64,000 nucleotides of DNA from Candidatus Poribacteria bacterium (GTDB taxonomy: Bacteria; Poribacteria; WGA-4E; WGA-3G), in the NCBI GenBank assembly GCA_963665235.2, contig CAXXLX010000001.1:1440001-1504000 (forward strand), written 5' to 3'. Positions 17,790 to 44,504 of the stretch are shown in pieces. The notes under the pieces were generated by a model. It was not told where the DNA came from. It saw nothing but the letters and a program-made list of their open reading frames with translations, and did not search any database. Position numbers and translations under genes: made by a program. Numbering within the stretch: the stretch's first letter is position 1; every line of letters begins with the position of its first letter.

Positions 17790-18491
17790 ATGAAAAAGTC
17801 TCCGTTTTTTTTAATCATAACCTTTATCCTTGTAACGCTATTCGTTCTCTCTATCGAGCTGGTTGTTGCCCGTACGTTCAACAACGATTTTGAAACAGGC
17901 GACCTAACGGATTGGGAGAAAACAGGAGATGCGTTCGATTTTCAACCGACCTGGGGCGATAATCCAACAGCACGGAACCGCGGACAGCCCTCTAATCATC
18001 AAGGCGATTGGTGGCTCGGACTCGCTGAACAATACCAAGGCCCAGAAAAAGGCGCGGAACTCGGACAAAGTCCTGGCGACCTCGCGGGCAACGGTCGACC
18101 TGATCAGCCGCAAGGCACCTTGACCTCAATCGAGTTCATAATTGTTGGGGATACGATGAACTTTCTTATCGGAGGGGGCAACCGGCCCTGGGGCGTAAAT
18201 CCCGAACCGTGTTGTGTTAACCTTGTAATTGATGATGAGGTCGAACGAACAATGACCGGTAGTAACACAGAAACGATGGCACGAAAAGAGTGGGATGTTG
18301 CCGATTTGAAAGGCAAAACCGCACAACTTGTCGTCGTTGATAATAGCAGTGGCGGTTGGGGACACCCAAACTTTGACGATGTGCATCAAGCCGATGCTAG
18401 CGGGGAAAATATACCGTGGTCCCAGGTGACAGCTGTCGAGGCCCGCGGAAAGTTGGCAGTCAGCTGGGCACAGATGAAAAAGTATTACTAA
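17790..18491 (+). CDS. Secreted beta-sandwich protein with C-terminal tail, paralog 2
   Basis: Near-identical upstream region and signal peptide to paralog 1; tail TAVEARGKLAVSWAQMK. Confidence 0.8.
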   Translation: MKKSPFFLIITFILVTLFVLSIELVVARTFNNDFETGDLTDWEKTGDAFDFQPTWGDNPTARNRGQPSNHQGDWWLGLAEQYQGPEKGAELGQSPGDLAGNGRPDQPQGTLTSIEFIIVGDTMNFLIGGGNRPWGVNPEPCCVNLVIDDEVERTMTGSNTETMARKEWDVADLKGKTAQLVVVDNSSGGWGHPNFDDVHQADASGENIPWSQVTAVEARGKLAVSWAQMKKYY

Positions 18492-18515
18492 GCTTTGAAA
18501 TGGAAGGGAAAAATA

Positions 18516-19220
18516 ATGAAAAAAACTCTGTTTTCACTTATGATACCTGCTGCTCTTGCAATCCTATTCATTTTGCCTATCAATCTAGTTGTCGCCCGGA
18601 CGTTCAACAACGATTTTGAAACAGGCGACCTAACAGATTGGGAAGAGAAGACAGGCGATGCGTTCGATTTTCAACCCACCTGGGGCGATAATCCAACGGC
18701 ACGGAACCGTGGACAGCCCTCTAATCATCAAGGCGATTGGTGGCTCGGACTCGCCGAAAAATACCAAGGCCCAGACAAGGGCGCGAAACTCGGACAAAAT
18801 CCTGGCGACCTCGCGGGCAACGGTCGACCTGATCAGCCGCAAGGCACCTTAACCTCAATCGAGTTCGAGATTATCGGGGATACGATGAATTTTCTCATCG
18901 GAGGCGGCAACCGGCCTTGGGACGTGAATCCTGAACCGTGTTGTGTTAACCTCGTCATCAATGACAAGGTCGAACGAACAATAACCGGTAGTAATACAGA
19001 AACGATGGCACGGAAAGAGTGGGATGTTGCCGATTTGAAAGGCAAAACCGCACAACTTGTCGTTATAGATAAGAGTAGTGGTGGCTGGGGCCATCCGAAC
19101 TTTGACGATGTGCATCAAGCCGATGCCAGCGGAAAAAACATACCGTGGGACAGAGCCCTTGCTGTTCAAGCCCGCGGAAAGTTAGCAGTCAGCTGGGCAC
19201 AGATGAAAAAGTATTACTAG
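18516..19220 (+). CDS. Secreted beta-sandwich protein with C-terminal tail, paralog 3
   Basis: Distinct signal peptide, core like paralog 2, 3' end identical to paralog 1. Confidence 0.8.
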   Translation: MKKTLFSLMIPAALAILFILPINLVVARTFNNDFETGDLTDWEEKTGDAFDFQPTWGDNPTARNRGQPSNHQGDWWLGLAEKYQGPDKGAKLGQNPGDLAGNGRPDQPQGTLTSIEFEIIGDTMNFLIGGGNRPWDVNPEPCCVNLVINDKVERTITGSNTETMARKEWDVADLKGKTAQLVVIDKSSGGWGHPNFDDVHQADASGKNIPWDRALAVQARGKLAVSWAQMKKYY

Positions 19221-22499: not shown

Positions 22500-23270
22500 C
22501 TATTTCCTAGCTTTGAGCTGTCCCCAAGTAACGGCCAACTTGCCAGCGGGTTCAACGGCGGCTGCCTCGTTTTCCATTACTTGTGAAATTTCGCCTGCGT
22601 TTAGTTCCCGGTCATAGAGCCGCACCTCATCAATTATACCTCTGAAAAGGTATTCGTGCACGGCACGTTCATTCGCGCCTGCACCGATGAGAAATTCCTC
22701 ATCTGGGTTGATGTTAAGCGCAGCGTCCTTTTCACCTTCAAGTTTGCCATTGACATAGAACTTCTGTTTACCGCCAGCATAGACTCCAGCGAGGTGTTGC
22801 CATTTGCCGGGTGTCACTGCTGGGCCTTGAACAGAATTCCAGCTACCCCCAACGCCTGTCCAATACTGCCAGGTATTACCGGGTTCAGCATAAAAGATAT
22901 ACCCGCTTAGCGGCGCGTCATTACGTGAAGAAACAACGGCGCGGTGGGCACCTTCACTCCCCGGTGCCACGTTTGCCCAGGCACATATAGTGAAGGTATC
23001 TGAATTGAGGTCTTTATGGTAGGGAACATTTACCTCATCCCCCCCGGCACTAAATTCGATGCCACCGCCGTAGTATCCATCGGTCCATTCAGGCGTGCCC
23101 ATCAATGTACCATCGTGTCCGTTCCCGCTTTCATCGCTTGCGGTCTCACCTTTTCCTTCATTGAATGTCCAGTACGCCACAAGGCTATCCTCGAGATTAG
23201 CGGCTAACACCGGGAGCGTCACAAAACCCGCGAGTAGCAGTAAAGCGAATACCGAAAATATAGTTTTCAT
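22500..23270 (-). CDS. Secreted LamG-like jellyroll protein with C-terminal tail
   Basis: Signal peptide; LVAYWTFNEG, WQHLAGVY, FRGIIDEVRLYDREL; tail AVEPAGKLAVTWGQLK. Confidence 0.88.
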   Translation of the reverse strand: MKTIFSVFALLLLAGFVTLPVLAANLEDSLVAYWTFNEGKGETASDESGNGHDGTLMGTPEWTDGYYGGGIEFSAGGDEVNVPYHKDLNSDTFTICAWANVAPGSEGAHRAVVSSRNDAPLSGYIFYAEPGNTWQYWTGVGGSWNSVQGPAVTPGKWQHLAGVYAGGKQKFYVNGKLEGEKDAALNINPDEEFLIGAGANERAVHEYLFRGIIDEVRLYDRELNAGEISQVMENEAAAVEPAGKLAVTWGQLKARK

Positions 23271-28866: not shown

Positions 28867-29700
28867 ATGAAAGTGAAAACTGTAAGTCCCATCTGCCGGT
28901 CCGTGTGTGTTTTCAACCCCACTGCGGACATGAGGAAACATATCATAAAGACCCTCCTTTGTGCCGTGCTTTTAGGGGTTTTCGCAATTGGATATAGCCA
29001 GGCCGGAACTTGGAGAGATGACTTCAGCGGAATAGAACTCAACGGCTGGGAACAGATTTTCGAAGAAAATCCTTGGTTTGCAAGATGGAGACTTGTAGAT
29101 GAACAGCAGCGTCCCATTGTAGATGAACCATTTCTCCTCTTTGGTTATATTCGTATGCCTGAACAGGAGGATGTGACAGCAGCCGATTTTCTGCAATGGA
29201 ACGCCCATCCATTTCAACTTGACAAGTTAAAGGTAGTAGGCGAAGAGATACGTTATGGATGGCCCGTCACAGGTGAACTTTGCTTATTCCTCGGCAAACG
29301 GCAACCCAAACCTGACTTTGCCGAAGGTTATATTTTTTCACCTGAAAAGGCAACGAAAATGCAATTTACCGCAAATGGCGTTTATAATAAAGGGGAAGTG
29401 AAAGCCGAGTATGCTCTCATGCTCCGACTAACTTCAGGAGACCTAAAGGTTTTTTTCGACACCGGAACATTTCAAATCTTTACGCAAGACCTTTTCATAA
29501 CCGAATTCTTTGACGCTGAGATTACTATGATTGATGTCGTCGGTTTAATGATAGTGTTTGAATTTCCAGGGCGATGGTTTGATGCAACGATTTCAGCCTT
29601 TTCAGTTTCTGGAGCCGGTATTCGGAATTATAATTTGCTTGATGTGCCGTTGGGAAACACGCAACTGACGACCACTTGGGGAGAATTGAAACGTTTCTGA
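28867..29700 (+). CDS. Secreted protein (family A, DUF1080/ConA-like) with C-terminal tail
   Basis: Signal ...GYSQA|GTWRDDF; paralog of 37075 and 39848; tail QLTTTWGELKRF. Start could be 28930. Confidence 0.75.
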   Translation: MKVKTVSPICRSVCVFNPTADMRKHIIKTLLCAVLLGVFAIGYSQAGTWRDDFSGIELNGWEQIFEENPWFARWRLVDEQQRPIVDEPFLLFGYIRMPEQEDVTAADFLQWNAHPFQLDKLKVVGEEIRYGWPVTGELCLFLGKRQPKPDFAEGYIFSPEKATKMQFTANGVYNKGEVKAEYALMLRLTSGDLKVFFDTGTFQIFTQDLFITEFFDAEITMIDVVGLMIVFEFPGRWFDATISAFSVSGAGIRNYNLLDVPLGNTQLTTTWGELKRF

Positions 29701-29791: not shown

Positions 29792-32668
29792 ATGAAAAGC
29801 CTCGCGTCTATATGGGAATTGTGTCAACAGTGGTTTAAACGCTCGGTTCCGCTGGTTGTGCTTATTGGCCTGCTAAGCAGCTCGCTTCTTCTCTGTGTTT
29901 TTATCCGAACAGCGAATTACCCGCTCCTGGAAGAGACATATCTTCTCGGCACAGATTCCTATCGTTTTCTGCGTCAAGCCAATATTATTGTTTCGCAAGG
30001 GCATTTACCCGCAATTGACACACAGCGATGGCAGTTGGAAGGAAGAGATTTATCAACTTCTCTCAATCTTTTTTCTTATCTCCTTGCTTACACCTATCGT
30101 TTTCTGTATTGGTTTTTTCCAAACATAAGTCTCTACACGGTTGCTGTATATGCGCCTATTGTTTGCTATGCGCTTTGTCTGTTGATTCTTTACGTATTAT
30201 GGCGACGCGTTTTTGGGACATCCATTGCTCTCCTCGCTGTCAATTTTACTGCTATTTTCCCATCTCTGAATCTGCATCGTTCCACTGCGGGTTTTGCTGA
30301 CAGAGATGCCTTTGTCCTACTGCTGTGGTTGGTTATGTTCCTATTTTACCTGAAAGCGGAATCTACTCTTCCGAAAACAGGGGCATCCGCTGGTATTACT
30401 GCTAAAGCATCAGGCGGGAAATGGCTGTGTTCTTTTTATGCAGCGATATCAGGAATTGCTGGCGGATTGCTTGCACTTTCTTGGGAGGGGGTAGGTCTCG
30501 CGACAGTTATGCTCTCTATCTGGATTGGTGTACGCGTGCTGCGCGGTCGCTTTTCTCGTCAAAGCGCATCACTTTATGTTATTTGGTATCTCTGCTTCAC
30601 TGGACTTGCCTTCTCATTTACGCGCGCCTACCACAGCATTTGGATTCCTTATGCTTCTCTGACGATTGTCATCCCAACTATGACCCTTTTCTGTACCCTC
30701 ACATTTTTTGGGAAAGAGAATTCAACAACTACCAAAACAGAAAAACCTGCTTCCCTAAGGAAACGTTTGTTGGAATTTTCAAGGTACAGCAACATTTATC
30801 GATGCCTCTTCGGTTGTGTTATCACTACCTTCCTATTGGCAGGGTTTGCCCTATTGCAATCACCTGATATCAGTGAAACATTTCGTAGACTGTTTGACAA
30901 TTTTGTCTCACCCTCCGGGCGAAGTCGTCTTATGCTTACCGTTTCTGAACTTTTTGACTTAGACGGCATAAGGTTTCTCAGTAAGTATTCAGTCATAGCC
31001 TTGGCAGCAATGGCAGGTTGTGGGCTCCTAGTTTACAATTTCTTCTCAAAAGAGCGCGTCATTTTTCGGTTAGCTCTCATCGGTTTTGAAATAGTGCTTT
31101 GTGGAATCCTTCTCTCTCTTTTCCTTACAAATTCGGATGTCTCTTTTGGCATCTTTGGGTTTTCTTTTTTGGTAGGTGGGATCACGATAGGTGTAGCGTA
31201 TATCCTTAGAATAGGAGACAACCTCGGAAATAATAAGTATCTATTGGTGTTAATATGGATGCTTGTAGGTCTTGCCAGCAGTCGTGGTGCCGAGCGATAC
31301 CTCTTTTTTATTGACCCAGTATTGGCGGTCTTAGTGAGTTTTTTGATTTTTACGGGACTACGGAGATGTATGAAGGAGCGAATTGGGAATGATTCATCTG
31401 AGCAGACTGAAGTACAAGGTTCTGTATTCGGAACCGGGCAAACAGAATTGTGTGTAATAAGTCTTATCGTAGCTTCTGAACTGTATATTGGATATCGTCT
31501 ATTTGGTGTCGGTAGTTTCACAAAGGTGATTTTTCTTGGTATGGTAATACCATGTGCACTCTTCGGAATTTTGCTGCTGTACCAATTGGCACGGCTTAGG
31601 ATATCCCATCTCCAAAGGTTTGGCTGCATCGGGACCGTGTGTATTCTCATCCTCTTCACAAGTTCAGATGTTTTTTCCGTAGGAGGCGTTTTTAACCCTG
31701 CTCCCTTCCCGCTGCACAAAGGGTTTGTCCGGGCAAGTACCGAGTCGGTACGTAAAACAGCCGTACCTCGCTCCCCGAAATTGCAGAAACGTTTGGCTGA
31801 TATCGCGGAGCATACCGATGAACACGCGGTTATTACCGCTTGGTGGGATTACGGAAGCAAGATACATTGGTTTGCGAAACGTGCAACCGTTGTTGACGAA
31901 GACCACTATATTCCTTATTGGATCTTTATGATGGCGCGGCATGTCTTTAGCGGTGTATCTTCTACTGAAACGCTTACATTTTTAAAGACACATAACGTTA
32001 CGCATCTGTTGATAACGACAAACGACCTCCTTAAACTTGATACTATTACGTATACGGGCTCTGATGAAACTTATGACCGTGGTGCAGCTGTTCATTTTCT
32101 CATGCCAATTCGCAGCCGAGAAGTGGCACCTTCCGTGCAGCAAACAGACTTGATTCCACACAGTTCGCGAACTATGGATACGCTTTCGCTAAATGGAAAG
32201 GACTATCCACCAGGGCAATGGATGTTGCAAGGTGTTTCAATTATCGACGAGGGTGATACCTGGTCAGCAAAGGTTCATGGAATAACCAGGGACGGTAAAT
32301 TTTCTCTACCCCCAGCGGAATTACGGATTGGCACGTCACACATCAAGTCTGAGAAAAAGGGAGTCCCAGGCTCTATCGTTGTTTTTTCTAATGAGACGAA
32401 CCAGAAGGTGCAGGCATTTTATGTATCAGCAACCGCTGCACGTTTACTGACAGTTCGACTATATCTTTTTCTGGAGGAGATTCCTGGTTTTTCGTTGCTA
32501 TATGATACTAATTCTGAAGAGCGGTGTGAACTTGATGGGTTCCGGCTCTGGAAAATTGAGTATCCCGAAACAGTTCAACCCGAGCCGAAATATCGGCAAC
32601 ACGATTTTCCTGAAACTGAAAAGCAATTGAAACATTCATGGGAAAGGGGTGAGCTTATAGGTCGTTAG
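29792..32668 (+). CDS. STT3/AglB/PglB-family oligosaccharyltransferase
   Basis: 958 aa multi-TM; GTDSY (EL1 Asp), GFADRD (DxD), TVSE (TIxE/SVSE-like), WWDYG, DLLKLDTI (DK motif). Confidence 0.9.
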   Translation: MKSLASIWELCQQWFKRSVPLVVLIGLLSSSLLLCVFIRTANYPLLEETYLLGTDSYRFLRQANIIVSQGHLPAIDTQRWQLEGRDLSTSLNLFSYLLAYTYRFLYWFFPNISLYTVAVYAPIVCYALCLLILYVLWRRVFGTSIALLAVNFTAIFPSLNLHRSTAGFADRDAFVLLLWLVMFLFYLKAESTLPKTGASAGITAKASGGKWLCSFYAAISGIAGGLLALSWEGVGLATVMLSIWIGVRVLRGRFSRQSASLYVIWYLCFTGLAFSFTRAYHSIWIPYASLTIVIPTMTLFCTLTFFGKENSTTTKTEKPASLRKRLLEFSRYSNIYRCLFGCVITTFLLAGFALLQSPDISETFRRLFDNFVSPSGRSRLMLTVSELFDLDGIRFLSKYSVIALAAMAGCGLLVYNFFSKERVIFRLALIGFEIVLCGILLSLFLTNSDVSFGIFGFSFLVGGITIGVAYILRIGDNLGNNKYLLVLIWMLVGLASSRGAERYLFFIDPVLAVLVSFLIFTGLRRCMKERIGNDSSEQTEVQGSVFGTGQTELCVISLIVASELYIGYRLFGVGSFTKVIFLGMVIPCALFGILLLYQLARLRISHLQRFGCIGTVCILILFTSSDVFSVGGVFNPAPFPLHKGFVRASTESVRKTAVPRSPKLQKRLADIAEHTDEHAVITAWWDYGSKIHWFAKRATVVDEDHYIPYWIFMMARHVFSGVSSTETLTFLKTHNVTHLLITTNDLLKLDTITYTGSDETYDRGAAVHFLMPIRSREVAPSVQQTDLIPHSSRTMDTLSLNGKDYPPGQWMLQGVSIIDEGDTWSAKVHGITRDGKFSLPPAELRIGTSHIKSEKKGVPGSIVVFSNETNQKVQAFYVSATAARLLTVRLYLFLEEIPGFSLLYDTNSEERCELDGFRLWKIEYPETVQPEPKYRQHDFPETEKQLKHSWERGELIGR

Positions 32669-32704: not shown

Positions 32705-32978
32705 ACGAGTTGTGCTAAATAACTATTTGTCCAATATTATTTCACAATTATATAACGTCTTGTTAGTTTTTGTCATTGGTTGATTCCTTCTTTAGTCCCA
32801 GTATTCGGGCAAGCAGCCCGCTCTTTAAGGACGATATCTTTATAGAAAGTCGTTTCCGCCCCGGCCTCTTAGTCCCAGTATTCGGGCAAACAGCCCGCTC
32901 CTCAAGGACGATATCTTTATATGAATGTCAAATATCTGTGAAAACAACAAAAACAATGCGTTAACTGGCACAAGTCGT
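32705..32978. mobile_element. MITE (274 bp), ~19-bp imperfect TIR, 7-bp TSD TATTAGT, two internal compound REPs
   Basis: TATTAGT|acgagttgtgctaaataac...gttaactggcacaagtcgt|TATTAGT. Confidence 0.7.
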
Positions 32979-33345
32979 TATTAGTAGGATTTTCCGTTTT
33001 CTATAAATTGTCAGAATCTTGGATTACACGGATTTTAGGGTATGTAACATCCACAGTTTTGTGATTAAGGATGTTGCGTTTTTTCCGCATTATCGACACA
33101 TAAGTACAAAATACAAAATATTTACACAGGCCATGTCAAAGGGTGTGTAAAGTTTTTGTACAAGTAGAACTTACGCATTCCCCTCCGCTCCTCTACTAGC
33201 GGGATATCAGTATTAGTCCCAGTATTCGGGCAAACAGCCCGCTCTTTAAGGACGATATCTTTATAGAAACACAAAACATGCACCCCCTCTTAGTCCCAGT
33301 ATTCAGGCAAGCAGCCTGCTCTTAAGGACGATATATTTATAGAAT
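32792..33345. repeat. Four copies of a ~55-bp compound REP
   Basis: ttagtccc-agtattcgggcaaRcagcccgctc..-aaggacgatatctttata at 32792, 32869, 33213, 33290. Confidence 0.85.
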
Positions 33346-33781
33346 GAAAAAAATGTTGTGGATTATTACCATTTATTGCCCGTCGCAGCCCTGATTCTAG
33401 TAGAAAAACGCATCGCGCATCACAACCCTATACACGCGAGCTTGATAATAAATATCCGTTTTCTCTAAACATTTTTGAGGTTCTCCGAAAAAAGCGGAAT
33501 GAGTGGAGCAGAAACGGCTGCTTCTATAAATATATCGTCCCTACGGGACTAAGAATCGGGGCGGAAATGGTTTTCTATAAATATATCGTCCCTACGGGAC
33601 TAAGAGGCGGGCAGAAACCCAGATGCCTATAAACATATCGTCCCTAAGGAGCGGACTTTCAGTATTCGGGCAACCAGCCCGCTCCTGATACGAGGGGAAA
33701 ATTTTTCAAACTCACGTTATACGACACGACGGGCGATGAATCGCCCTACTACGAACGGAGGTCCAAAAACTTTACGCACCC
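33141..33781. mobile_element. MITE (641 bp), 18-bp TIR GGGTGYGTAAAGTTTTTG, 8-bp TSD ATGTCAAA (IS256-like ends)
   Basis: Left ATGTCAAA(33133-33140)|gggtgtgtaaagtttttg; right caaaaactttacgcaccc, with the TSD restored at 35057-35064 once the ISAs1 is removed. Confidence 0.7.
33434..33717. mobile_element. MITE (284 bp), same family as 25765-25915, 5-bp TSD TATAC, three internal REP copies
   Basis: TATAC|acgcgagcttgataataaatatccg...tcaaactcacgt|TATAC; internal ctataaaYatatcgtcccta x3. Confidence 0.8.
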
Positions 33782-33787
33782 ATGTCA

Positions 33788-35052
33788 CAGGGCCATTTAG
33801 TTTTAAGAATTTTCATGTGATGAGGTTAACTGCGAGTTTAGGTTTTGAGGCGAAAGATCGTATTGTCTCGGTGATTTTCGTATAACCGGCAAATCGTAAG
33901 ACTGCCAGTGCGGTGTTGCGTAAAGCTGCCATGACTTGGGGGATGCTGCCTGTTCTTGCTTTTGAGGCATCCTCTCCTAAAACCACGTCTCGAACCCAGT
34001 GGGATTTGTTTTCTATCGTCCAATGTTCTCGGTGTAGTTTTAGCAAGTCTTCCGCTGTTGCCTCTGCGACAAGTTAGTGATACCATACTGGATAGAAGTT
34101 TCACATTCACCTGTTTTGGTATTGACGCGCTGCACTTTGTATAGACTTGTGCAAGACCCGGCCAGTCAATATAATCTGACACGCTTGTGCTAGCTGTTCC
34201 CGTGTGATGATAAATCCGCGGTTTCTTCAACAAGGTGTGCCCCTGCTTGCGTGTGTGCGTTTTGAAGTCTGCCTTGATCGGGGGGGTCCGTCTAACAAGG
34301 GGGGCAAAGACCCACACAATATCGATATACATCTGTTTCTGATTCTTTTTGACACGCAGCACATAATAGGCTTTCTGTTTGATAAGTTCTTTACAAAAAG
34401 CACGTTGGGTCAATAGAGCATCCGTTGTCACCACTTTTCCTTTGACATCAAACTTTTCCAGCAGTTGCCGGGAAATAGGTATCTCATTGGTCTTGTGACT
34501 GACGGCACATGCAAGGGTAACCCCTAACTCATGACAGACAGCGGAGAGTAAATGGGTTCGGCGGCCGGTGTCTATGTCTATGGAACCGCAGAGTTCTTTA
34601 CCATCTATAGCAATGCCTTTCAAACCCGAGGGGTCTGTCCCTTCAAGAGCCGCAAGTTGTAAAGACACCCATTCGGTTGAGGGCGGTTTCTAAACTTTCT
34701 ATATCAAGATGCTTAAACAGATTATGAAAAACGGGGTCTTCCCACAACGGAAACCTAACGCTTCAGCCAGTTCAGGTTCATTGCGGGCCCAGGTCGCTAT
34801 AGACGTATAATATGACCGCACAGAAAACCGATAACATAAGAGCAAGGATGGAAACCAAAGGATGCCGTTTGCCTTTTGGGTGGATCTACAATTTGTGATA
34901 ATATACTGAGTAACATACTTCAACCTTCCTAAAAAAAAGGATTATTTTATTTACAGTGAAGTAAGCAGATGCAGCGAAAAAAGTCACGCTGCATCTGTCC
35001 AAATCAAAATAATAACAGATAGGAAAAAAATTCCTAAAACTAAATGGCCCTG
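33788..35052 (-). mobile_element. ISAs1-family insertion sequence (1265 bp)
   Basis: TIR cagggccatttagtttta / taaaactaaatggccctg; 10-bp TSD ACCCATGTCA at 33778-33787 and 35053-35062. Confidence 0.9.
33813..34923 (-). pseudogene. ISAs1 transposase, multiply frameshifted
   Basis: Fragments in different frames: IAIDGKEL, TNEIP, TTDALLTQ, VKKNQ; REHWTIENKSHWVRDVVLGED. Confidence 0.88.
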
Positions 35053-35071
35053 ACCCATGTCAAATATTTTC

Positions 35072-35100: not shown

Positions 35101-35327
35101 ATAATTTTATTGAGGGTGGGTCGGACATAAATCCTCGTAACTGCACTGATGGGAACCATAAATGTCTCAGTATTCGTTATAGTGTGGTCGGAAGCTGTAG
35201 CACGCTCTGTTAGATTGTGACTGCATCTTGCAAACGGACATTACGAAACCGCCGCGAATAATGAACCCACCTCGTTTAATTTTAATTTATGAGAATTTCA
35301 AAACGATACGAAAGGAGACCGAAAACA

Positions 35328-36074
35328 ATGCGCAAACGATTAGAGTTAATTCTGACAGCCCTACTTCCTGTAGCGGTTTTGTCAATCGGTTTTGTCACGT
35401 TTTCTTCAAAGGCTGGACTAAATAGCAACGAAACGGCTTCTCCGAAAGCATCCGGTGATTATTACAGAGCACCCGGTAAGGATGGTATGTACTTCGGTCC
35501 AGAAGTCTATTCCAGCACTCTAAACGGTGGCCCTTTTAATAACGGCTTTGAGATTGTGTATACAAACGAGTGTGGCAGTGTTTCTGCATCATCCACTCCA
35601 AATGCTGTTAGTTGGCACCGAAACCAAGTTTGGTCTTTTAGCACGGACCCTGAACATGATACACCGCCATGGGGCACCACTTCCTCCTACATTGCCCTCA
35701 GAGACGACCTTGGATGGGACGAGATTAGTCTTGGTGGAGGAACTACCGGGTATCCCTGGGCAGGATACGAAATACATGAAAGTGAGGCCGATTCCCTCAT
35801 AGTATCAGGCTGGACCGACGTAACAGGGTATAGACGTCATCCCGTGGATGCTGATGCTGATGATGAGCCGATATACATCTGTCCGATGTACTACAAGACA
35901 GGGGACTGGGTCTATGATGGTGCCACTGGGGGTAAGTCTCCGGATAACGTAGAAGAATATAAACAATCGAAAGGTCGCTTTGGACCTCCTATGTTTCGCG
36001 ATGAAGAAGAGCAAATACTCAGTCGGTTCGTAGCGGATTTAGATCGTTGGTTTGACTGTATAGAGTTGAATTAG
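35328..36074 (+). CDS. Secreted Trp/Gly-rich protein of unknown family (X1), no C-terminal tail
   Basis: RBS aaggag; N-terminal hydrophobic segment; shares YYRxPGK, FGPEV, DDLGWxEISxGGGTTGYPW, CPMYYK, RWxDCI with 43740-44504. Confidence 0.75.
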   Translation: MRKRLELILTALLPVAVLSIGFVTFSSKAGLNSNETASPKASGDYYRAPGKDGMYFGPEVYSSTLNGGPFNNGFEIVYTNECGSVSASSTPNAVSWHRNQVWSFSTDPEHDTPPWGTTSSYIALRDDLGWDEISLGGGTTGYPWAGYEIHESEADSLIVSGWTDVTGYRRHPVDADADDEPIYICPMYYKTGDWVYDGATGGKSPDNVEEYKQSKGRFGPPMFRDEEEQILSRFVADLDRWFDCIELN

Positions 36075-36170
36075 ATCTCGTAGTTTCAACCTTTTCAAGC
36101 AATGGGAAGGGAAGTTTGTATCTTTTCCCATTGCTTCTTCGCTAATCTCACAAAGGCAAGGAGGTGCCAC

Positions 36171-36947
36171 ATGAAACAGATGGCAAAAACTTGGATAGGT
36201 CTTGTGTTAATCGTCATACTTAGTGTTTTATCTCTATCTGCTTCTGCTCAGGTTTTTCGGGATGATTTTGATGTCCTGAAAGAGGCTGACTGGGAGCTTT
36301 GGGATGACGCTTCTGATTCTGTGTGGCGAGTTAAAGATGGGTTTTTAAGGGTAGCAATACCATCGAATGACTTTTTTAGACCTGCTGGATTCTTCCAATT
36401 TAAGGGAATTCCGGGCAACTACGAGACCTTCGAATTTTTTATTGAAGACCTTTTAATTCAGCGGCAGGAAAAGAAACCGGGGCCTGAGGTTTTCACAATT
36501 AAAGTTAACAATTTGGGTTCAAAAAAGGCGAGTTTTGGTGTCGCCATTGGACGAAGATTTCCAGAAGTGAGCAAAGGATACTCGTTCTTTTATGTGTTTA
36601 CCACCTATGGAATAGAGGCAAAGGCGTACATGTGGTTTGGTGTAGATCATTGGTCGGACAAGGAACCGCGCCACCCTAACGTCTTTCGGGAGGGGATATG
36701 GGCATTAGCATCCATGGAGATTCGTTTTGATAGGGGACATTTTCTATGGTTTGCGGATGGTGAAAAACGCGCGGATTTTGAAGACCCCGATTTTTCACAA
36801 ATTGAGCTCATCGGGTTTCTAATACGACCAGGTATTTTGGATGGTGGGAGTGGATGGGTGGATTCATTTACGATTTCGTATTCAGGGCTTGCTGTTTCAC
36901 CGCAAACCAAGTTAGCGACAACGTGGGGAACGTTAAAACGGTTTTGA
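36171..36947 (+). CDS. Secreted protein (family B, DUF1080/ConA-like) with C-terminal tail
   Basis: RBS ggaggt; signal ...SASA|QVFRDDF; tail LAVSPQTKLATTWGTLK; paralog of 37951. Confidence 0.78.
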   Translation: MKQMAKTWIGLVLIVILSVLSLSASAQVFRDDFDVLKEADWELWDDASDSVWRVKDGFLRVAIPSNDFFRPAGFFQFKGIPGNYETFEFFIEDLLIQRQEKKPGPEVFTIKVNNLGSKKASFGVAIGRRFPEVSKGYSFFYVFTTYGIEAKAYMWFGVDHWSDKEPRHPNVFREGIWALASMEIRFDRGHFLWFADGEKRADFEDPDFSQIELIGFLIRPGILDGGSGWVDSFTISYSGLAVSPQTKLATTWGTLKRF

Positions 36948-37074: not shown

Positions 37075-37908
37075 ATGAAAGTTAAAACTGTAAGTTCCAT
37101 CTGCCGGTCCGTGTGTATTTTCAACCTCACTGCGGACATGAGGAAGTATATCATAAAGACCGTCCTTTGTGCTGTGCTTTTGGGGGTTTTTGCAATTGGA
37201 TATAGCCAGGCCGGAACTTGGAGCGACGATTTTAGTGGAGCGGAACTCAACGGATGGGAACGTATTTTCGAAGAGGATCCTTGGTCTGTAGATTGGAGAC
37301 TTGTAGCCTGGGGACCTATGGATGACCATTTCCTCCTCTTTGGTGATATTCGTATGCCTAAACAAGAGGGTGTGACAGCAGCCGATTTTCTGCACTGGAA
37401 CGCCCATCCATTTCAACTTGACAAGTTAAAGGTAGTAGGTGATGAGATACGTTATGGACGGCCCGCCTCTGGTGAACTTTGCTTATTCCTCGGCAAACGG
37501 CAACCCGAACCTGACTTTGCCGAAGGTTATATTTTTTCTCCTGAAAAGGCAACGAAAATGCAATTTACCGAAAATGGGGTGTATAATAAAGGGGAAGTGA
37601 AAGCCGAGTATGCCCCCATGTTCCGGCTGACTTCAGGAGACTTAAAGGTTTTTTTTGACACAGGAACATTTCAAATCTTTACGCAAGACCTTTTCATAAC
37701 GGAATTCTTTGACGCTGAGATTACTATGATTGATGTCATCGGTTTAATGATAGTGTTTGAATTTCCAGTTGCCGATGTGCGATGGTTTGATGGATCGATT
37801 TCAACCTTTTCGGTTTCCGGAGAGGGTATTCCGAATCATAATTCTCTTGATGTGCCGTTGGGAAACATGCAACTGACGACCACTTGGGGAGAATTGAAAC
37901 GTTTCTGA
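37075..37908 (+). CDS. Secreted protein (family A) with C-terminal tail
   Basis: Very close paralog of 28867-29700; tail QLTTTWGELKRF. Confidence 0.78.
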   Translation: MKVKTVSSICRSVCIFNLTADMRKYIIKTVLCAVLLGVFAIGYSQAGTWSDDFSGAELNGWERIFEEDPWSVDWRLVAWGPMDDHFLLFGDIRMPKQEGVTAADFLHWNAHPFQLDKLKVVGDEIRYGRPASGELCLFLGKRQPEPDFAEGYIFSPEKATKMQFTENGVYNKGEVKAEYAPMFRLTSGDLKVFFDTGTFQIFTQDLFITEFFDAEITMIDVIGLMIVFEFPVADVRWFDGSISTFSVSGEGIPNHNSLDVPLGNMQLTTTWGELKRF

Positions 37909-37950: not shown

Positions 37951-38739
37951 ATGAAACTGATAGCAAAGACCTGGGTGGGTCTTGTGTTAATCGTCGTACT
38001 TAGTGTTTTATCTCTATCTGCTTCTGCTCAGGTTTTTCGGGATAATTTTAATGTCCTGAAAGAGGATGACTGGGAGCTTTGGGATGCCGCCTCTGATTCT
38101 GTGTGGCGAGTTAAAGATGGTTTTTTAAGGGTAGCAATACCAGCGAATGACTTTTTTATTCCTGCTGCATTCTTCCAATTTAAGGGAATTCCTGGGAAGT
38201 ACGAGACCTTCGAATTTCTTATTGAGGACCTTTTAATTCAGCGGGAGGAAAAGAAACCGGGACCTGAGGACTTCACAATTAGGGTTAAAAATTTGGGTTC
38301 AAAAAGGGCGAGGTTTGGTGTCGCCATTGGACGAAGATTTCCCGAAGTGAGCAAAAGACACGCGTTTTTTTATGTGTTTACCACCTATGGAATAGAGGCA
38401 AAGGCTTACATGTGGTCTGGTACGAGTCATTGGTGGGACAAAGAACCGCGCCATCCTGACGTTTTTCGGCAGGGACTATTGGAATTATCATCCACGGAGA
38501 TTCGTTTTAATAAGGGACATTTTCAGTGGTTTGCGGATGGTGAAAAACGTGCAGAGTTTGAAGACCCCGATTTTGCACAAATTGAAATCATCGGGTTTCT
38601 AATACAAGCAAATATGTGGCATGTAGGGAGTGGATGGGTGAATTCGTTCAGGATTTCGGGGTCAGGGCTTTCGAAGCTTGCCGTTTCACCACAAGCCAAG
38701 TTAGCGACTACATGGGGGCAACTCAAACAGCGAAGGTGA
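37951..38739 (+). CDS. Secreted protein (family B) with C-terminal tail
   Basis: Close paralog of 36171 including its RBS region; tail LAVSPQAKLATTWGQLK. Confidence 0.78.
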   Translation: MKLIAKTWVGLVLIVVLSVLSLSASAQVFRDNFNVLKEDDWELWDAASDSVWRVKDGFLRVAIPANDFFIPAAFFQFKGIPGKYETFEFLIEDLLIQREEKKPGPEDFTIRVKNLGSKRARFGVAIGRRFPEVSKRHAFFYVFTTYGIEAKAYMWSGTSHWWDKEPRHPDVFRQGLLELSSTEIRFNKGHFQWFADGEKRAEFEDPDFAQIEIIGFLIQANMWHVGSGWVNSFRISGSGLSKLAVSPQAKLATTWGQLKQRR

Positions 38740-38743: not shown

Positions 38744-39841
38744 ATGTCAAGACGTTCCGTTATCACAACAATCATCATTCCGGTGCTGCTGATTTCGGTG
38801 TTGGTTATCGTGCTCGTTAATAACCAGCGGGAGTTCCCTGGCGAGCTTGTTTTCGCGCAAAATAAGGTGGACTTCGGAACAATTCCTGAGTGGGAAGGGG
38901 TTGTAACACGTTCAGTGACAGCGAGAAATACGGGGGGAGGCACACTCCAAATAGAAAAAATTCGGGCAAGGTGTAGTTACGCAAAGATTACGGGCCCAAA
39001 ACTACTTCAACCCGCCGAGGAAGGAACGTTCGAAGTTGTGATTAATCCGCAAATCGTTCCGCTCGATGCGACCCCAGCGACGGCTGTCCTTTTCACGGAT
39101 AGCCCACGGACACCACAGGTTTATCTCACAATTGTCGCTTCGGCACAGCGGTTCGCCACCCTAAGCGCGGACATCTGCGATTTCGGAGAGATTCTCCCTG
39201 AAACGGTGCATGAAAAGCGGGTCAAACTGTGTGTAAACGCGCCACTCAATTTAGCGGAGGTCCGCCTCATGCCATCGACACATCCAGGGCTGATGTGGAA
39301 AATGTCGCCCGAGCCGGATTCAATCTGTTTCCACATCACAATTCAGTTGCAAGCTCCGAAAAAACGGGAACGGGTAGACACAGAGTCGCCTCCGGGCACT
39401 GCCGAAAACTTTTTTTCCGCGATACTTACCGTCGCTTTTCCGAATGAGCGAACTTTGACGTTGCCGATTGCTGCGAAAATAGTGCGTCCCGTGACAGTTC
39501 ACCCGGAAACCCTCTCCTACGGTGCGGTGGACAGAGGTACGGAGCCGTTTACTGAATTCACGCTCTCCGCGAAAAAAGGTTTTAAGGTGCTAAGTCTTCA
39601 GGTTCCGGACTCTGTGCGGGTTGCTGCGCCGGACGATTGGACGCAATCCTTACACGCCTACAACGCACACGGACAACCAGAGAAACGGTTCAAGGTTTTT
39701 TGGGAGGTGGCGAACTCACCTGAACTGCTGCGTGAAGAGATCCGGGTGCTGACCACAGCAGACCCGTTACCGCTCCGTATTCCTATTTACGGGTTAATTC
39801 GTTCCACAAAGGGTGGAACTATTACATCAGCTGGGAGGTAA
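38744..39841 (+). CDS. DUF1573-like Ig-repeat protein, membrane anchored
   Basis: N-terminal TM; VDFGTI...RNTGGGTLQI...C; repeated DFG/SYG Ig-like modules. Confidence 0.72.
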   Translation: MSRRSVITTIIIPVLLISVLVIVLVNNQREFPGELVFAQNKVDFGTIPEWEGVVTRSVTARNTGGGTLQIEKIRARCSYAKITGPKLLQPAEEGTFEVVINPQIVPLDATPATAVLFTDSPRTPQVYLTIVASAQRFATLSADICDFGEILPETVHEKRVKLCVNAPLNLAEVRLMPSTHPGLMWKMSPEPDSICFHITIQLQAPKKRERVDTESPPGTAENFFSAILTVAFPNERTLTLPIAAKIVRPVTVHPETLSYGAVDRGTEPFTEFTLSAKKGFKVLSLQVPDSVRVAAPDDWTQSLHAYNAHGQPEKRFKVFWEVANSPELLREEIRVLTTADPLPLRIPIYGLIRSTKGGTITSAGR

Positions 39842-39847: not shown

Positions 39848-40600
39848 ATGAGATATATCATAAAAATCGCTTTTAGTGTAGTGCTTTTGAGCATTTTCGC
39901 AATTGGACAGGGTTCTGCCGAAGTCTGGGTTGAGCCGTTTGAGGATGAGGAACTCAACGGGTGGGAATCCCCTGTGGAGCATTGGCGCGCCTGGTGGGAA
40001 GCTATAGAGGGAATGCTTTTCGCTCGAATTCAGAGATCCAATCACCGACCAATATGTGAGAAGAACATAGCAGATTTTCTGCACTGGAAAGCCGTTCAAT
40101 TTCAATTTGAGCAGTTAACAATGGTAGGCAAGGAAATGATTTATCAACAGGAGGGGCATAAAGGTATGGGGGAACTCTGTTTGTTCCTCGGTAAACAACA
40201 AATCGCACCTGACTTTGCAGTGGAGGGGTATATTGTCAGTCCCGAAGAGACAAGCAAAATGACGTTCTCCGAAACTGACGCTTACAATAGAGGCAAAACG
40301 AAGGCGTGGTACGGCGACAAATTCCCATTCACTACAGACCACCTAAAAGTTGTTTTTGATTCAGGAAAATTCCAGGTGTTTACGAACGAAGTCCTGCTAA
40401 CCGAATTTACGGATGATGACTTCACGAAGATTGATGTTGTGGGATTGGTCATTACGTGTCACTTCGGCGGCGACTGGTTTGGTGCCCGCATGTCAAGTTT
40501 TTCTATTTCTAATGTCGATATTCCTAATCATGGTCTTGCAGTTCAATTGCGGGGAACGCAGCTCGCTACAACCTGGGGAAATTTGAAGCAGTTTGAGTAA
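39848..40600 (+). CDS. Secreted protein (divergent family A) with C-terminal tail
   Basis: ADFLHW, GELCLFLGK, LKVVFDSGKFQ shared with family A; tail QLATTWGNLK. Confidence 0.75.
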   Translation: MRYIIKIAFSVVLLSIFAIGQGSAEVWVEPFEDEELNGWESPVEHWRAWWEAIEGMLFARIQRSNHRPICEKNIADFLHWKAVQFQFEQLTMVGKEMIYQQEGHKGMGELCLFLGKQQIAPDFAVEGYIVSPEETSKMTFSETDAYNRGKTKAWYGDKFPFTTDHLKVVFDSGKFQVFTNEVLLTEFTDDDFTKIDVVGLVITCHFGGDWFGARMSSFSISNVDIPNHGLAVQLRGTQLATTWGNLKQFE

Positions 40601-42708
40601 TGTACAACGCTATCCGTGTTTATGTCGTCCTGTTTCTGCTATGTTTCGGGACTCCTATCGGCATCTGCCAATCCCAAAAGGTCGGAACAATTCAGGGACA
40701 GGTTACAGATAAACAAAACAATCCACTCACTGGCTACACCGTCTCAACAGTTTCACAAAGAGACGACATAACCTACGCTGCCAAAACTAAGGCTGATGGC
40801 CAGTTTACGCTTACCAACCTTCATGCCGACACCTGGACGATAGAAGTTCGCCACTTCAGCACCCTCCTTGCACAACGTGAGGTCACAGTTGCCGGCGAAA
40901 CCGAAGTCAAAGCAGATTTTGTGATTGAAGGAACAGCCGTTATTTCCGGATTTCTGCTCGATTCTGTCAGTAAACTCCCCTTGCCGATTACGGGTCAGAT
41001 ACAGATTGGTCTCCTCACGTCTGACGACGAATGGATAGAGAGGACATACCGAGGTGAAATCGCTCATGGATATTTTGAAGTCAAAGATTTGTTAGCGGGA
41101 CGCTACGCCATTATCGATGCTTTTGACGGTTATGTCTCTGCAATGTCCGATTTACCCGTGGTAGCAGTTTATCCAGGAAGCATTGTGGGTGGTGTAGAGA
41201 TATTTTTGAAACCGGGGGCATCGCTCTCCGGTGTTTTCGTTGATTCTGAAAGCCGAGCCCCTGTCTCCGGGGTTGCTGTCAACGTGGCATCTGAAGTGAA
41301 AAATACCGTTTATCCTGACAGGACGTTCGCACATAAAACAGAGACAGGCGTAAACGGTGAATTTCGCCTCACAACGCCAAGTGACCCTGAAATCTATTAC
41401 GCCTTCACGCTTATGGCATCGCACCCACGGTATCAAACGCACCAGTGGCGGCGGGAGCTGTCACCGGATAAAAATGTGTATGCGTTAGGTGAACGGACAC
41501 TGAACCCGTTCTTGTCGCTACAAGGCACGGTGTCAGCTTCAAACTCGCGCGAGGCTGTTGATGGACTCACAGTGCGTTTAAAGATGCACAACAGAGCGGC
41601 AGATTTTTTCCGCGCAGCAGCCCAACCTGAACACACAGTGCGTCCTGATGCAAACGGCAATTTCCTTTTCTCTGAACTCCACCCAATTGAATATAGTTTG
41701 ACAATTTCCCGGAACAGTGTTATTATAGTGAATAAGGAGTCGGTCAACCCGCAAAGCGGGAAACCGCTTAAAATCCGCTTGCCGAAAAAATTGGAGACGT
41801 TACGCGGCACAGTTGTCGATGCCGAACAACGTCCGATTGCCGGTGCGAATCTCTATGCAGCGCGGCGCAGCGAAACCCGGCACGGGCACGACGTGCTCCT
41901 GTCCAAAACACAAACGGATGCAAACGGGGTTTTCCAAATGCAGGTGTTAAAAACAAAACCGCATCTCCTGTCCCTTGAGGTATCCAAAAAAGGGTATCTG
42001 TCAAGGGTATATCCGAACGTGGAGCTCCAAAAAGAGCCGTTGACTGTTCCGCTTCAAAAAGGATTTACGATTAAGGGGCGCGTCATTCTCCCGCGGAATG
42101 TGTCACCAGATGGATATTACATTGTGAACCTCTTTCCCGAATCGGCAAAAATGGAGCCGACGTTGAATCCACTGGGATTGAATAGACCGCTTCTCTCAAA
42201 ACGATTTCCTGTAACGCAGCCGACTTTCGTACTGGATGGACTATTTGAGGAAAAATACAGCCTCTATATCGCCGGAGAGGGTATCGCTACAACCGACAAA
42301 TTGAAGTGCCAAGCAGATGTGGATAGTGGAGAAGTGCTCATCGTAGCGGATAGACCCACAGTGGAATTAAAGGGACAAGTGCTTTGGGCGGATACAGGCG
42401 AACCTGTGCAAAACGCCTCGGTATCTCGCTCGTGGTATCCGTGGGAACTAACCCAATACGATATGTCTTTAACCCTAGACCGCTTTGAAACCGAGACAGA
42501 CGCACAGGGACAATTTGCGTTCTCAAATTTGACACAGGCACAGTATCAGCTGCGCATCCGTGCTGTCCAGTCGGTATTTGAAAAAGGGGTTGATGCATAT
42601 CAACATGTGTACCTCCAGAAGCAGGTTGCAATACCAGCTTGTAGTGATAATGTGCATCGTATCTATATAGGGAAAGCGGACGGTACCGCTTTTGGAGGAA
42701 AAAAATGA
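40600..42708 (+). CDS. Secreted carboxypeptidase-regulatory-like (transthyretin-like beta-sandwich) repeat protein
   Basis: Signal peptide; about seven modules of the type GxVxDxxxxPxxG...TDAxGxFxxxxL. Confidence 0.8.
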   Translation: MYNAIRVYVVLFLLCFGTPIGICQSQKVGTIQGQVTDKQNNPLTGYTVSTVSQRDDITYAAKTKADGQFTLTNLHADTWTIEVRHFSTLLAQREVTVAGETEVKADFVIEGTAVISGFLLDSVSKLPLPITGQIQIGLLTSDDEWIERTYRGEIAHGYFEVKDLLAGRYAIIDAFDGYVSAMSDLPVVAVYPGSIVGGVEIFLKPGASLSGVFVDSESRAPVSGVAVNVASEVKNTVYPDRTFAHKTETGVNGEFRLTTPSDPEIYYAFTLMASHPRYQTHQWRRELSPDKNVYALGERTLNPFLSLQGTVSASNSREAVDGLTVRLKMHNRAADFFRAAAQPEHTVRPDANGNFLFSELHPIEYSLTISRNSVIIVNKESVNPQSGKPLKIRLPKKLETLRGTVVDAEQRPIAGANLYAARRSETRHGHDVLLSKTQTDANGVFQMQVLKTKPHLLSLEVSKKGYLSRVYPNVELQKEPLTVPLQKGFTIKGRVILPRNVSPDGYYIVNLFPESAKMEPTLNPLGLNRPLLSKRFPVTQPTFVLDGLFEEKYSLYIAGEGIATTDKLKCQADVDSGEVLIVADRPTVELKGQVLWADTGEPVQNASVSRSWYPWELTQYDMSLTLDRFETETDAQGQFAFSNLTQAQYQLRIRAVQSVFEKGVDAYQHVYLQKQVAIPACSDNVHRIYIGKADGTAFGGKK

Positions 42709-43033: not shown

Positions 43034-43720
43034 ATGAGAAACCTTTTGAGAATATTCATAACAATTTTTGCCATCCTCGTTTTACAAGGAATTGCCGATG
43101 CCGTTACATGGCAAGATGACTTTACGCAGGAAACAGAAGATAACTGGCAACTCATAGGAAACGATTCTGTATGGCAAATTGACGATGGATTTTTAAAAGT
43201 AGAAATTCAGACCGAAAAGCAGTGGCGAACCCTCTTCGAACTGTACCAATTTATAGCCTTCCCCGGTCCCTATAATAACGTTACAATCACACTTGAAACT
43301 ATCGGGGTATCGGACGCACGATTCGGTATTGCCATAGGAAAACGTTTCCTAAATACCGAAGGAGAAGTAGAGGAAACAGGGTATTATCTATTTTTCACAA
43401 ACGATATGCAAGCGTCACGAAACCAAAACGTCTTTATCGGGCCCGGTCAACGTTGGAACACAGACGAACTCAAACAGATGGTGTTACACATTAACAACGG
43501 TCGATTTCAACTGTTCGGTGATGACGAATTGCGCATGGATTTTACGGACGCGAACCTCACACAAATTGACATCATCGGGTTTGTTCTCGTCGACTATGTT
43601 ACAGATGCCGTAAGCACAGCGAGAGCCTGGGTAGATAAATGGACGATTTCCGGGCTTTCAGTTTCACCAAAGGACAAACTCACCACGCTCTGGGGACACC
43701 TGAAGAAAAAACAGCCGTAA
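43034..43720 (+). CDS. Secreted protein (family C, DUF1080/ConA-like) with C-terminal tail
   Basis: Signal ...ADA|VTWQDDF; ELYQFIA and RWNTD shared with 44545; tail LSVSPKDKLTTLWGHLK. Confidence 0.78.
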   Translation: MRNLLRIFITIFAILVLQGIADAVTWQDDFTQETEDNWQLIGNDSVWQIDDGFLKVEIQTEKQWRTLFELYQFIAFPGPYNNVTITLETIGVSDARFGIAIGKRFLNTEGEVEETGYYLFFTNDMQASRNQNVFIGPGQRWNTDELKQMVLHINNGRFQLFGDDELRMDFTDANLTQIDIIGFVLVDYVTDAVSTARAWVDKWTISGLSVSPKDKLTTLWGHLKKKQP

Positions 43721-43739
43721 ATTGTCATCTAGGAAAATT

Positions 43740-44504
43740 ATGTTGCGAAAAAATTTAGATCTGGTCTTTAACGCCCTTCTGCTATTACTCGTTTTAGGTG
43801 TCGCGTTCTGGGGTAGATTTGTTAGCGCGAGATTGAACTCGAGCGAACGGGCGCAACCCGCCGCATCGGGTGCGTACTATAGAACCCCCGGTAAAAACGG
43901 AAGGTGGTTCGGCCCCGAAGTGAATTCCCTCACACTCTGCGAAGGTGTCCATAATCCTTACAACAATAGAGGGTTTTTTGACATCGTTGAAACGATTGAG
44001 AACGCGGTAGTGTCCGCGTCAAGAATTCGCGGCGCGCTCCGCTGGTATCGTGGACAAAAGTGGGTTTTTGGAACAAACGACACTCCATGGGGAACAAACA
44101 CCTCCTACATCACCCTCCACGACGATTTGGGGTGGAGTGAAATCAGTCCTGGCGGCGGCACAACGGGGTATCCGTGGAGTGGCATTGAACGACACTGGCG
44201 CGATGGCGACATTATCCGCTCACAGGCAGTCGTGGTAGGATGGCGGCAGCAGCGATACGGCTCACAGCTATGGGTTTGCCCCATGTACTATAAAATCGGC
44301 GGCTGGGAAGGTGAACACCTTGAAGTCCACTGCCACACTCTCAGAACATGGTTTCCACCCGACTGGAACGTTCTCAAACAGAAGGATGGCGACTTCGGGA
44401 GACCCACCGAACGCAAACCCGGAGTGCTAAGCCGAAGAGGGCACAAAACCTCCCGCTGGTACGACTGTATACGGATATCCGAAGGTGATTCAAATCCGAG
44501 GTGA
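43740..44504 (+). CDS. Secreted Trp/Gly-rich protein of unknown family (X2), no C-terminal tail
   Basis: Paralog of 35328-36074. Confidence 0.75.
   Translation: MLRKNLDLVFNALLLLLVLGVAFWGRFVSARLNSSERAQPAASGAYYRTPGKNGRWFGPEVNSLTLCEGVHNPYNNRGFFDIVETIENAVVSASRIRGALRWYRGQKWVFGTNDTPWGTNTSYITLHDDLGWSEISPGGGTTGYPWSGIERHWRDGDIIRSQAVVVGWRQQRYGSQLWVCPMYYKIGGWEGEHLEVHCHTLRTWFPPDWNVLKQKDGDFGRPTERKPGVLSRRGHKTSRWYDCIRISEGDSNPR

Follow-up and report, generated by a model that had tools for sequence, protein, structure and literature searches.

The gene at positions 29792–32668 of a 64-kb stretch of a Candidatus Poribacteria genome (positions 1440001-1504000 of its contig C1; the whole stretch is called the window below) codes for a bacterial homologue of STT3. 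Judged by sequence profiles and by its modelled fold, the protein is of the archaeal/eukaryotic kind (Lys-type, with a DK motif) and is clearly no PglB of the Campylobacter type. These data also suggest that the protein probably has oligosaccharyltransferase (OST) activity. More specifically we favour, with somewhat more confidence than doubt, that the gene encodes a working single-subunit OST of the STT3/AglB family (glycosyltransferase class C, GT-C), which would reside in the inner membrane of Poribacteria and have a periplasmic C-terminal domain. The PglB clade comprises the bacterial N-glycosylating OSTs of Campylobacterota/Desulfobacterota. With the present protein, the few bacteria for which N-glycosylation of proteins is considered possible would be joined by a whole further phylum, whose members are sponge symbionts that have not been cultivated. 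The literature combining Poribacteria with oligosaccharyltransferase, STT3 or N-glycosylation yielded no paper on the enzyme family, subscription journals being outside the coverage of the search.

Motifs, sequence profiles and modelled fold

The strand opposite to the gene contains stop codons throughout and no open frame. On the coding strand the motifs WWDYG, DLLKLDTI, TVSE and DRD, which the initial annotation had named for a frame of 958 amino acids, were all located as claimed (Table 1). DLLKLDTI is the sole match to the pattern D..K...[IMLV] anywhere in the protein, and the sole match to the MI-type pattern M..I...[IVW] lies at residue 240 within a membrane helix. According to the accessible parts of PMC3703281, the consensus is DxxKxxx(M/I) for the DK motif and MxxIxxx(I/V/W) for the MI motif, the MI motif being present in all PglB and the DK motif in STT3 and most AglB.

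The catalytic positions hardly vary among the relatives. Across 127 full-length sequences D55 is retained in 125, E386 and W685 in 126 each and G688 in all, and position 170 is occupied by Asp in 121 and by Glu in 6. The DxD motif reads D..D in all 31 bacterial rows of the alignment and mostly E..E in the rows from DPANN archaea. All 27 orthologues retain D55, D170, D172, E386, R502, W684, W685, and G688, and at position 748 they carry Lys (15), Arg (11), or Thr (1). R375 of PglB and R404 of yeast, the counterparts of R502, bind the donor pyrophosphate (accessible parts of PMC7226087). The conserved sequence GSDETYDR downstream of the DK motif has no counterpart among the motifs named in the parts of PMC3703281 and PMC7226087 that were accessible.

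The Pfam family STT3 (PF02516) matched residues 49–311 with 54.3 bits (cut-off 24.5) and scored 67 bits in the scan of the protein's own genome. In addition, a profile made from 36 aligned relatives was searched against the sequences of solved structures. Human STT3A was matched best (E = 5.6e-42), followed by human STT3B (3e-38), yeast Stt3 (1e-36), A. fulgidus AglB-L (9e-19), and the C-terminal domain of P. furiosus AglB (7e-12). C. lari PglB (3rce, 5ogl, 6gxc) was matched with an E value of about 1e-4 and only at profile positions 615–663 around WWDYG. In the alignment to STT3A, D55, TVSE, R502, WWDYG, and DLLK are each placed on their STT3A counterpart, and the family sequence s-d-e-i-g-k-l-p-a-i-s-s-i-G is aligned to S-D-D-I-N-K-F-L-W-M-V-R-I-G. 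Since this sets DLLK on D-I-N-K-F-L-W-M of STT3A, the residues D745, K748, and I752 occupy, by alignment, the three positions that define the DK motif. Because of the Pfam score, the profile match to STT3A and the near-invariance in relatives, the motifs D55, DRD, TVSE, WWDYG, and DLLK are not chance occurrences.

Two minor profile matches were also noted. A weak NCBIfam match to HaoB of nitrifiers (25 bits, 1.1e-5, cut-off 200) covers residues 663–709, that is the WWDYG region, and the precomputed Pfam list names PF27869 for the 958-residue protein as well.

An AlphaFold2 model was built with an alignment of 127 rows and had a predicted local distance difference test score (pLDDT) of 90.8 and a predicted template modelling score (pTM) of 0.93. 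The best Foldseek match of the model was A. fulgidus AglB (7e9s, E = 1.4e-16). With VIA-align, yeast and human STT3 gave Z scores of 28–30 (root mean square deviation 2.6–3.2 Å, 548–595 residues aligned), whereas four entries of A. fulgidus AglB gave 27.9 (3waj), 26.5 (7e9s), 26.3 (5gmy), and 22.0 (3wak, the apo form), and PglB gave 17.5–19.7, the lowest values among the OSTs. The C-terminal domain was matched to that of C. jejuni PglB (Z 17.1) and to AfAglB-S2 (Z 15.9). It is because of the profile search and the fold comparison that we place the protein outside PglB; the phylogenetic tree described below holds neither PglB nor eukaryotic STT3. The proposal of the initial annotation that the enzyme is AglB-like, of the DK type and no PglB is borne out by the E values for STT3A and PglB and by the low Z scores of PglB. 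The equivalence of the DK motif stood up as well: the alignment to STT3A agrees with it, and in the model the motif lies on a helix interrupted at residue 748 (743–747/749–756).

With 17 membrane helices, the model exceeds the usual number of 13 by four. STT3A has four helices in the section from the TVSE loop to the soluble domain, which is also the family norm, whereas eight are predicted here (401–420, 425–444, 448–471, 481–499, 501–527, 545–571, 576–601, and 606–623). The extra hydrophobic segments that had been noticed ahead of the soluble domain are thus recovered in the model, and about 74 profile positions, corresponding to the region of the hairpin 425–471, are unmatched in the alignment to STT3A. 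The columns of this first extra hairpin have a median occupancy of 0.92–1.0 in bacterial and DPANN relatives alike, whereas two archaeal AglB outgroups leave them nearly empty (0.13–0.21). For the second extra hairpin (545–601) the occupancy is 0.85–0.89 in the bacterial and 0–0.15 in the DPANN rows. As the Methanocaldococcus outgroup has residues in these columns, the second hairpin is possibly not specific to bacteria. The predicted topology is weakly backed by the positive-inside rule, with 18 Lys or Arg per 101 residues of the inside loops versus 9 per 80 outside.

Relatives and residues near the acceptor site

Close relatives, with 69–81% identity, come from Candidatus Poribacteria assemblies. 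A locus scan with one genome per species yielded 584 confirmed relatives. Among the best 79 of these, the loci of which were examined, 7 were labelled Poribacteria, 2 'uncultured bacterium', and 70 were archaeal, nearly all of them from DPANN archaea (Woese-, Pace-, and Nanoarchaeota, unclassified archaea, and one bin of 1.3 Mb labelled Methanosarcinales). Of 121 genomes sampled from the phylum, 82 contained a match at E ≤ 1e-10. Only ten, this genome included, had a close orthologue with at least 46% identity; the other matches were paralogues at 28–32% identity, often several per genome.

A tree was calculated from 79 rows with IQ-TREE (LG+G4, quick), fragmentary frames having been dropped. 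The rows were the window protein, 6 named bacterial proteins, 25 Poribacteria paralogues, 16 unnamed metagenome proteins, and 31 DPANN proteins, namely every second one of those with at least 820 amino acids, taken from 66. All DPANN rows fell into one clade. For rooting, two named archaeal proteins were used, one from a Methylarchaceae archaeon and the other an STT3-domain protein of a Methanocaldococcus. In the rooted tree the DPANN rows (35, support 97) have as their sister clade the bacterial rows, which number 44 when the unnamed proteins are counted in (support 99). The root is provisional because the outgroup branches are long and were flagged by the tree program; with this provisional root the sequences place the bacterial family as sister of the DPANN-archaeal AglB clade, which would link the phylum Poribacteria to DPANN-archaeal AglB. 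Two genomes bearing members of the DPANN clade, a Woesearchaeota bin and the 1.3-Mb bin labelled Methanosarcinales, have only 1 and 2 Pfam STT3 matches, respectively, and therefore the clade member is most likely the resident AglB of these two genomes.

With the AglB-like proteins of the DPANN sister clade, which are uncharacterised and come from metagenome-assembled genomes of Woesearchaeota, Pacearchaeota, and Nanoarchaeota, the window protein can be aligned from end to end at 22–28% identity over full-length matches. Both have hairpin 1, the GSD..DR motif, WWDYG, and the Lys of the DK motif in common, whereas the DPANN rows have E.E in place of D.D, Tyr after WWDYG, no basic residue 12 positions after the catalytic Glu (0/66), and no hairpin 2. 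Eukaryotic STT3 (STT3A/STT3B and yeast Stt3; PDB 6S7O, 6S7T, 8AGE) is the best match in profile and fold and shares the catalytic Asp, the DxD/E motif, the Glu of the SVSE type, the Arg, WWDYG, and an ungapped canonical DK motif. In contrast to the eukaryotic enzyme, the window protein appears to stand alone, no genes for OST subunits having been seen; it has the larger number of membrane helices, lacks 8 residues found in STT3A just ahead of the DK helix, carries Lys instead of Asp 12 residues after the catalytic Glu and Ser instead of Tyr after WWDYG, and differs in the beta-rich C-terminal part, which contains the GSD..DR motif.

A. fulgidus AglB-L (PDB 3WAJ, 5GMY, 7E9S), the top match of Foldseek, resembles the window protein as a single-subunit OST of similar size with a Lys-type pocket. 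Its DK motif, however, is a variant with a four-residue insertion (accessible parts of PMC3703281), whereas the spacing is canonical in the window protein, and its profile E value was only 9e-19. Campylobacter PglB (PDB 3RCE, 5OGL, 6GXC) is likewise bacterial, single-subunit, and periplasmic, the last being a prediction for the window protein, and both sequences have a basic residue 12 positions past the catalytic Glu. PglB differs in its MI motif, in its length, the chains in the PDB having 713–724 amino acids, and in a sequence likeness confined to WWDYG. What the initial annotation had stated on the size and motif of Campylobacter PglB agrees with these chains and with the consensus of PMC3703281, as far as accessible. 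That division, with MI in PglB and DK in STT3 and most AglB, would no longer hold if a single-subunit enzyme of bacteria has a canonical DK pocket.

The basic residue bears on the sequon. In PglB the catalytic Glu is E319, and R331 binds an acidic residue at position –2 of the acceptor; in yeast Stt3 the place of R331 is taken by D362 (accessible parts of PMC7226087). R331 corresponds to E319+12, STT3A has Asp at E351+12 in an ungapped alignment, and the window protein has Lys398 at E386+12, so that the equivalence of K398 and R331 is based on spacing and profile alignment. Among the 27 orthologues this position is Arg in 15, Asn in 4, Thr in 2, Lys in the window protein alone, and Asp, Gly, Tyr, His, or Ser in one each. 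Among the 66 DPANN rows Ser (35), Asn (16), Glu (7), Gln (4), Tyr (2), Val (1), and Asp (1) were found, and the 31 bacterial rows showed Trp (10), Arg (7), Thr (4), Asn (3), a gap (2), and Gly, Asp, Val, Tyr, and Leu once each. The initial annotation had expected that plain N-X-S/T sequons would probably be accepted; the residue at the R331 position does not support this and is a hint in the opposite direction. Because the basic K398 occupies this position, an independently acquired, PglB-like preference for an acidic residue at –2 is possible. The fine specificity probably differs from that of eukaryotic STT3, as far as can be judged from these residues; the residue following WWDYG is Ser in 27/27 orthologues.

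In its sequence the enzyme would be a natural hybrid of a Lys-type +2 pocket and a basic residue at the –2 position of PglB, and the rules of sequon reading could therefore be tested by simple mutagenesis. It is also a new candidate scaffold for glycoengineering in E. coli, since partner subunits would not be needed.

Conserved locus and alternative readings

In the orthologous loci, seven of which were compared, the DUF1573 gene is followed by a gene for a CarboxypepD_reg repeat protein and by several genes for small secreted proteins. In the window an insertion sequence and four small genes lie between the OST gene and the DUF1573/CarboxypepD_reg set. The small proteins have the C-terminal tail ...KL(A/T)TTWGxLKxx, which was counted in 67 frames of the genome with a first pattern and, with a wider pattern, in 73 genes, of which the window contains 13, well above what its length would lead one to expect. 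These 13 proteins are small and exported, and their last residues read ...TTWGxLK.. or ...VSWAQMKKYY; the group includes Laminin_G_3-like proteins and a single TolB-like propeller. Neither the tail nor the proteins bearing it are covered by an NCBIfam family. A scan for promoters and terminators gave no more sites than shuffled sequence.

If the protein is a working OST, as we favour, D55, D170, D172, and E386 would by homology hold a divalent metal ion and the acceptor amide, and R502 would, likewise by homology, bind the phosphate(s) of a polyprenol-linked glycan. WWD (684–686) and K748 would shape a pocket of the Lys-type that receives the Ser/Thr at +2 of the Asn-X-Ser/Thr sequon, and the glycan would be moved en bloc onto Asn of exported proteins. 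Purifying selection acts on the gene: the ratio of nonsynonymous to synonymous substitution rates (dN/dS) was 0.15–0.20 against three orthologues, a fourth comparison being saturated. No other copy in the genome has the canonical motif set.

Several points speak against a working OST. We know of no member of the family with a known activity, glycan or glycoprotein. The Pfam STT3/PglB core domain (PF21436) reached 22.2 bits, just below the cut-off of 23, and only over residues 680–720, and the NCBIfam model archaeo_STT3 (TIGR04154, archaeosortase A-associated AglB) reached 63.6 bits, far under its cut-off of 450. In the studied enzymes the Asp of WWD hydrogen-bonds the +2 hydroxyl; this residue is Asp in only 16/27 orthologues, the others having Asn (4), Gly (3), Val (2), Glu (1), and Ala (1). 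Other Poribacteria paralogues carry SWEWG, DWNYG, YWDNG, NWNYG, WWVHG, and similar sequences, and the four other paralogues of this genome that were checked at this position have HWRFG, HWTYG, NWPHG, and NWGYG, three of the four being in pieces. As the Asp of WWD varies in orthologues and paralogues, the bacterial clade is, to judge by its sequences, not constrained to canonical sequon reading. Moreover, the conserved locus contains no gene for a glycosyltransferase, a flippase or sugar synthesis, and sequons are not enriched in the neighbouring tail proteins (3.8 per 1000 amino acids vs 4.5 genome-wide). Finally, the gene is in two or three pieces in three of the seven orthologous loci (L009, L010, L012), these broken copies being pseudogenes or otherwise decayed, or assembly errors.

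Sequon enrichment, which would be a sign that the tail-bearing neighbours are substrates, was not found. A complex prediction for residues 540–958 with the DUF1573 neighbour gave a score of 0.00 and no answer, which speaks neither for nor against an interaction.

We put forward only tentatively that Poribacteria possess an N-glycosylation system built on a 17-helix OST of the Lys-type with an independently gained, PglB-like basic –2 residue. It would belong to a conserved envelope locus with the DUF1573 membrane protein, the CarboxypepD_reg protein and the lectin-like proteins with the TTWGxLK tail, and the paralogues with an altered WWDYG would act on other acceptors, possibly on the tailed proteins.

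We considered three alternatives to a working OST. First, the protein could be a GT-C glycosyltransferase with an STT3 core but with another acceptor, that is a site outside a sequon, another residue or a non-protein molecule; possible targets would include the exported proteins of its own locus with the TTWGxLK tail, which is specific to the phylum. The altered Asp of WWD in 11/27 orthologues and the replaced motif in most Poribacteria paralogues would fit such an enzyme, as would the many family copies per genome, which are unlike known N-glycosylating OSTs, and the fold, which is shared by the C-mannosyltransferase DPY19 (Z 22). The tail genes, moreover, crowd the gene in the window and, with 19 genes, flank 6/7 orthologous loci, and a pattern search found no TTWGxLK tail in 953 kb of DPANN loci. 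However, the window protein itself has the full canonical WWDYG and D..K...I, the sister DPANN clade retains WWDYG and the Lys in 66/66 rows, the tail contains no Asn, and between the other paralogues of this genome and the closest tail gene there are 13–100 kb, which is not below the average spacing. We regard another acceptor as rather unlikely.

Second, the gene could stem from an old transfer and be no more than a relic, decaying or silent, whose function is lost. The orthologues broken in three of the seven loci, the restriction of close orthologues to 10/121 genomes of the phylum and the insertion sequence that landed beside the gene would suit a relic. Yet the frame is intact over 958 codons, the dN/dS values are those given above, the catalytic residues are all retained in 27/27 orthologues and the synteny is conserved, so that we consider this very improbable.

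Third, the notion that archaeal DNA was misbinned or misassembled into a bacterial genome, for which the archaeal nature of the nearest relatives beyond the phylum could be cited, is refuted: the gene lies 1.47 Mb into the 4.36-Mb contig C1 (of a 5.3-Mb genome in 4 contigs) amid bacterial housekeeping and lipopolysaccharide-export genes (NusB, RsfS, PP2C phosphatase, M19 dipeptidase, LptF/LptG, UppS, RsgA, ThiI, and RNase HII are neighbours on the contig), its content of guanine plus cytosine is like that of the surroundings, the identity to DPANN proteins is low, and the same gene with its neighbours recurs in several Poribacteria assemblies, whole chromosomes included.

Feature positions and further observations

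Table 1. Features of the STT3-type gene and of its surroundings. Positions are those of the window unless the contig (C1) is given; aa, amino acids.
Feature	Position	Strand	Basis or remark
STT3/AglB-type oligosaccharyltransferase gene (probable activity), 958 aa, intact	29792..32668	+	Open frame, Pfam, profile, fold
D55 (in TDSYRF), first catalytic Asp by homology, external loop 1	29954..29956	+	Counterpart of PglB D56 / STT3A D49
DRD 170-172, putative metal-binding DxD motif	30299..30307	+	Aligns with yeast D-N-E
TVSE 383-386, counterpart of SVSE/TIXE; E386, catalytic Glu by homology	30938..30949	+	Aligns with STT3A SVSE
K398, catalytic Glu +12	30983..30985	+	Spacing of PglB R331 / yeast D362
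Extra membrane hairpin 1, residues 425-471 (predicted)	31064..31204	+	Model, profile gap, column occupancy
R502, invariant Arg	31295..31297	+	Aligns with Arg of STT3A 'MVR'; counterpart of PglB R375 / yeast R404
Extra membrane hairpin 2, residues 545-601 (predicted)	31424..31594	+	Model, column occupancy
C-terminal domain, predicted periplasmic; alpha/beta core and beta-rich part	31709..32665	+	AlphaFold2 model, fold matches
WWDYG 684-688, then S689 where PglB/yeast have Tyr (Y468/Y521)	31841..31858	+	Motif scan, alignment
DLLKLDTI 745-752, DK motif (DxxKxxxI) on broken helix	32024..32047	+	Motif scan, STT3A profile alignment, model
GSDETYDR 756-763 (G756, D758, D762, R763), conserved in family	32057..32080	+	Alignment of relatives
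Upstream neighbour, secreted protein ending TTWGELKRF	28867..29700	+	Homologue directly upstream in L009 and L012
Insertion sequence, 33-nt inverted ends (88% complementary)	33781..35059	-	DDE transposase frame 33838-34668 (-)
DUF1573 membrane-anchored Ig-like protein	38744..39841	+	At most 2 kb from the gene in 7/7 orthologous loci
Secreted protein of CarboxypepD_reg repeats	40600..42708	+	Conserved in locus
Tail genes, first seven of 13	16882-17640, 17730-18491, 18495-19220, 22500-23270(-), 28867-29700, 36102-36947, 37075-37908
Tail genes, remaining six of 13	37951-38739, 39848-40600, 43034-43720, 44545-45264, 46474-47583(-), 52487-53269
Other STT3-like paralogues of the same genome, outside the window	C1:2201012-2203452, 2849111-2851580, 3495774-3498298, 803724-805715		Three split, two frames each; at the WWDYG position HWTYG, NWPHG, NWGYG, and HWRFG

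Two pairs of tail genes are near-identical paralogues with the same N- and C-terminal residues, namely 28867-29700 with 37075-37908 and 16882-17640 with 17730-18491; both pairs are recent duplications inside the locus. A repeat of about 35 nt (core ...AAGGACGATATCTTTATAG...), which resembles a miniature repeat element, occurs six times or more, with copies in either orientation, in the gap past the OST gene (32815-33657).

Two membrane-anchored proteins of 260 amino acids, encoded at 35289-36074 and 43722-44504, are paralogous to each other and have the sequences YYR.PGK.G..FGPEV and CPMYYK.G.W in common. They belong to no Pfam or NCBIfam family, and homologues are present in the orthologous loci L011 and L013/L014. 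Overlapping genes for a rhodanese-like protein and a MauE/DoxX-like membrane protein at 45281-46230 adjoin the locus in L011 and L013, too.

In another Poribacteria genome (L015), two distant STT3-like paralogues are situated 5 kb apart (7929-10673 and 15483-18194). Each of them is preceded by a gene for a TolB-like propeller, and one of these propellers ends in a tail of the TTWGxLK type.

Further away from the OST gene, the window encodes a restriction endonuclease of the GmrSD type (8944-10650) and, on the minus strand at 58146-59108, a frame in which a nucleotidyltransferase domain is fused with a HepT-like domain.

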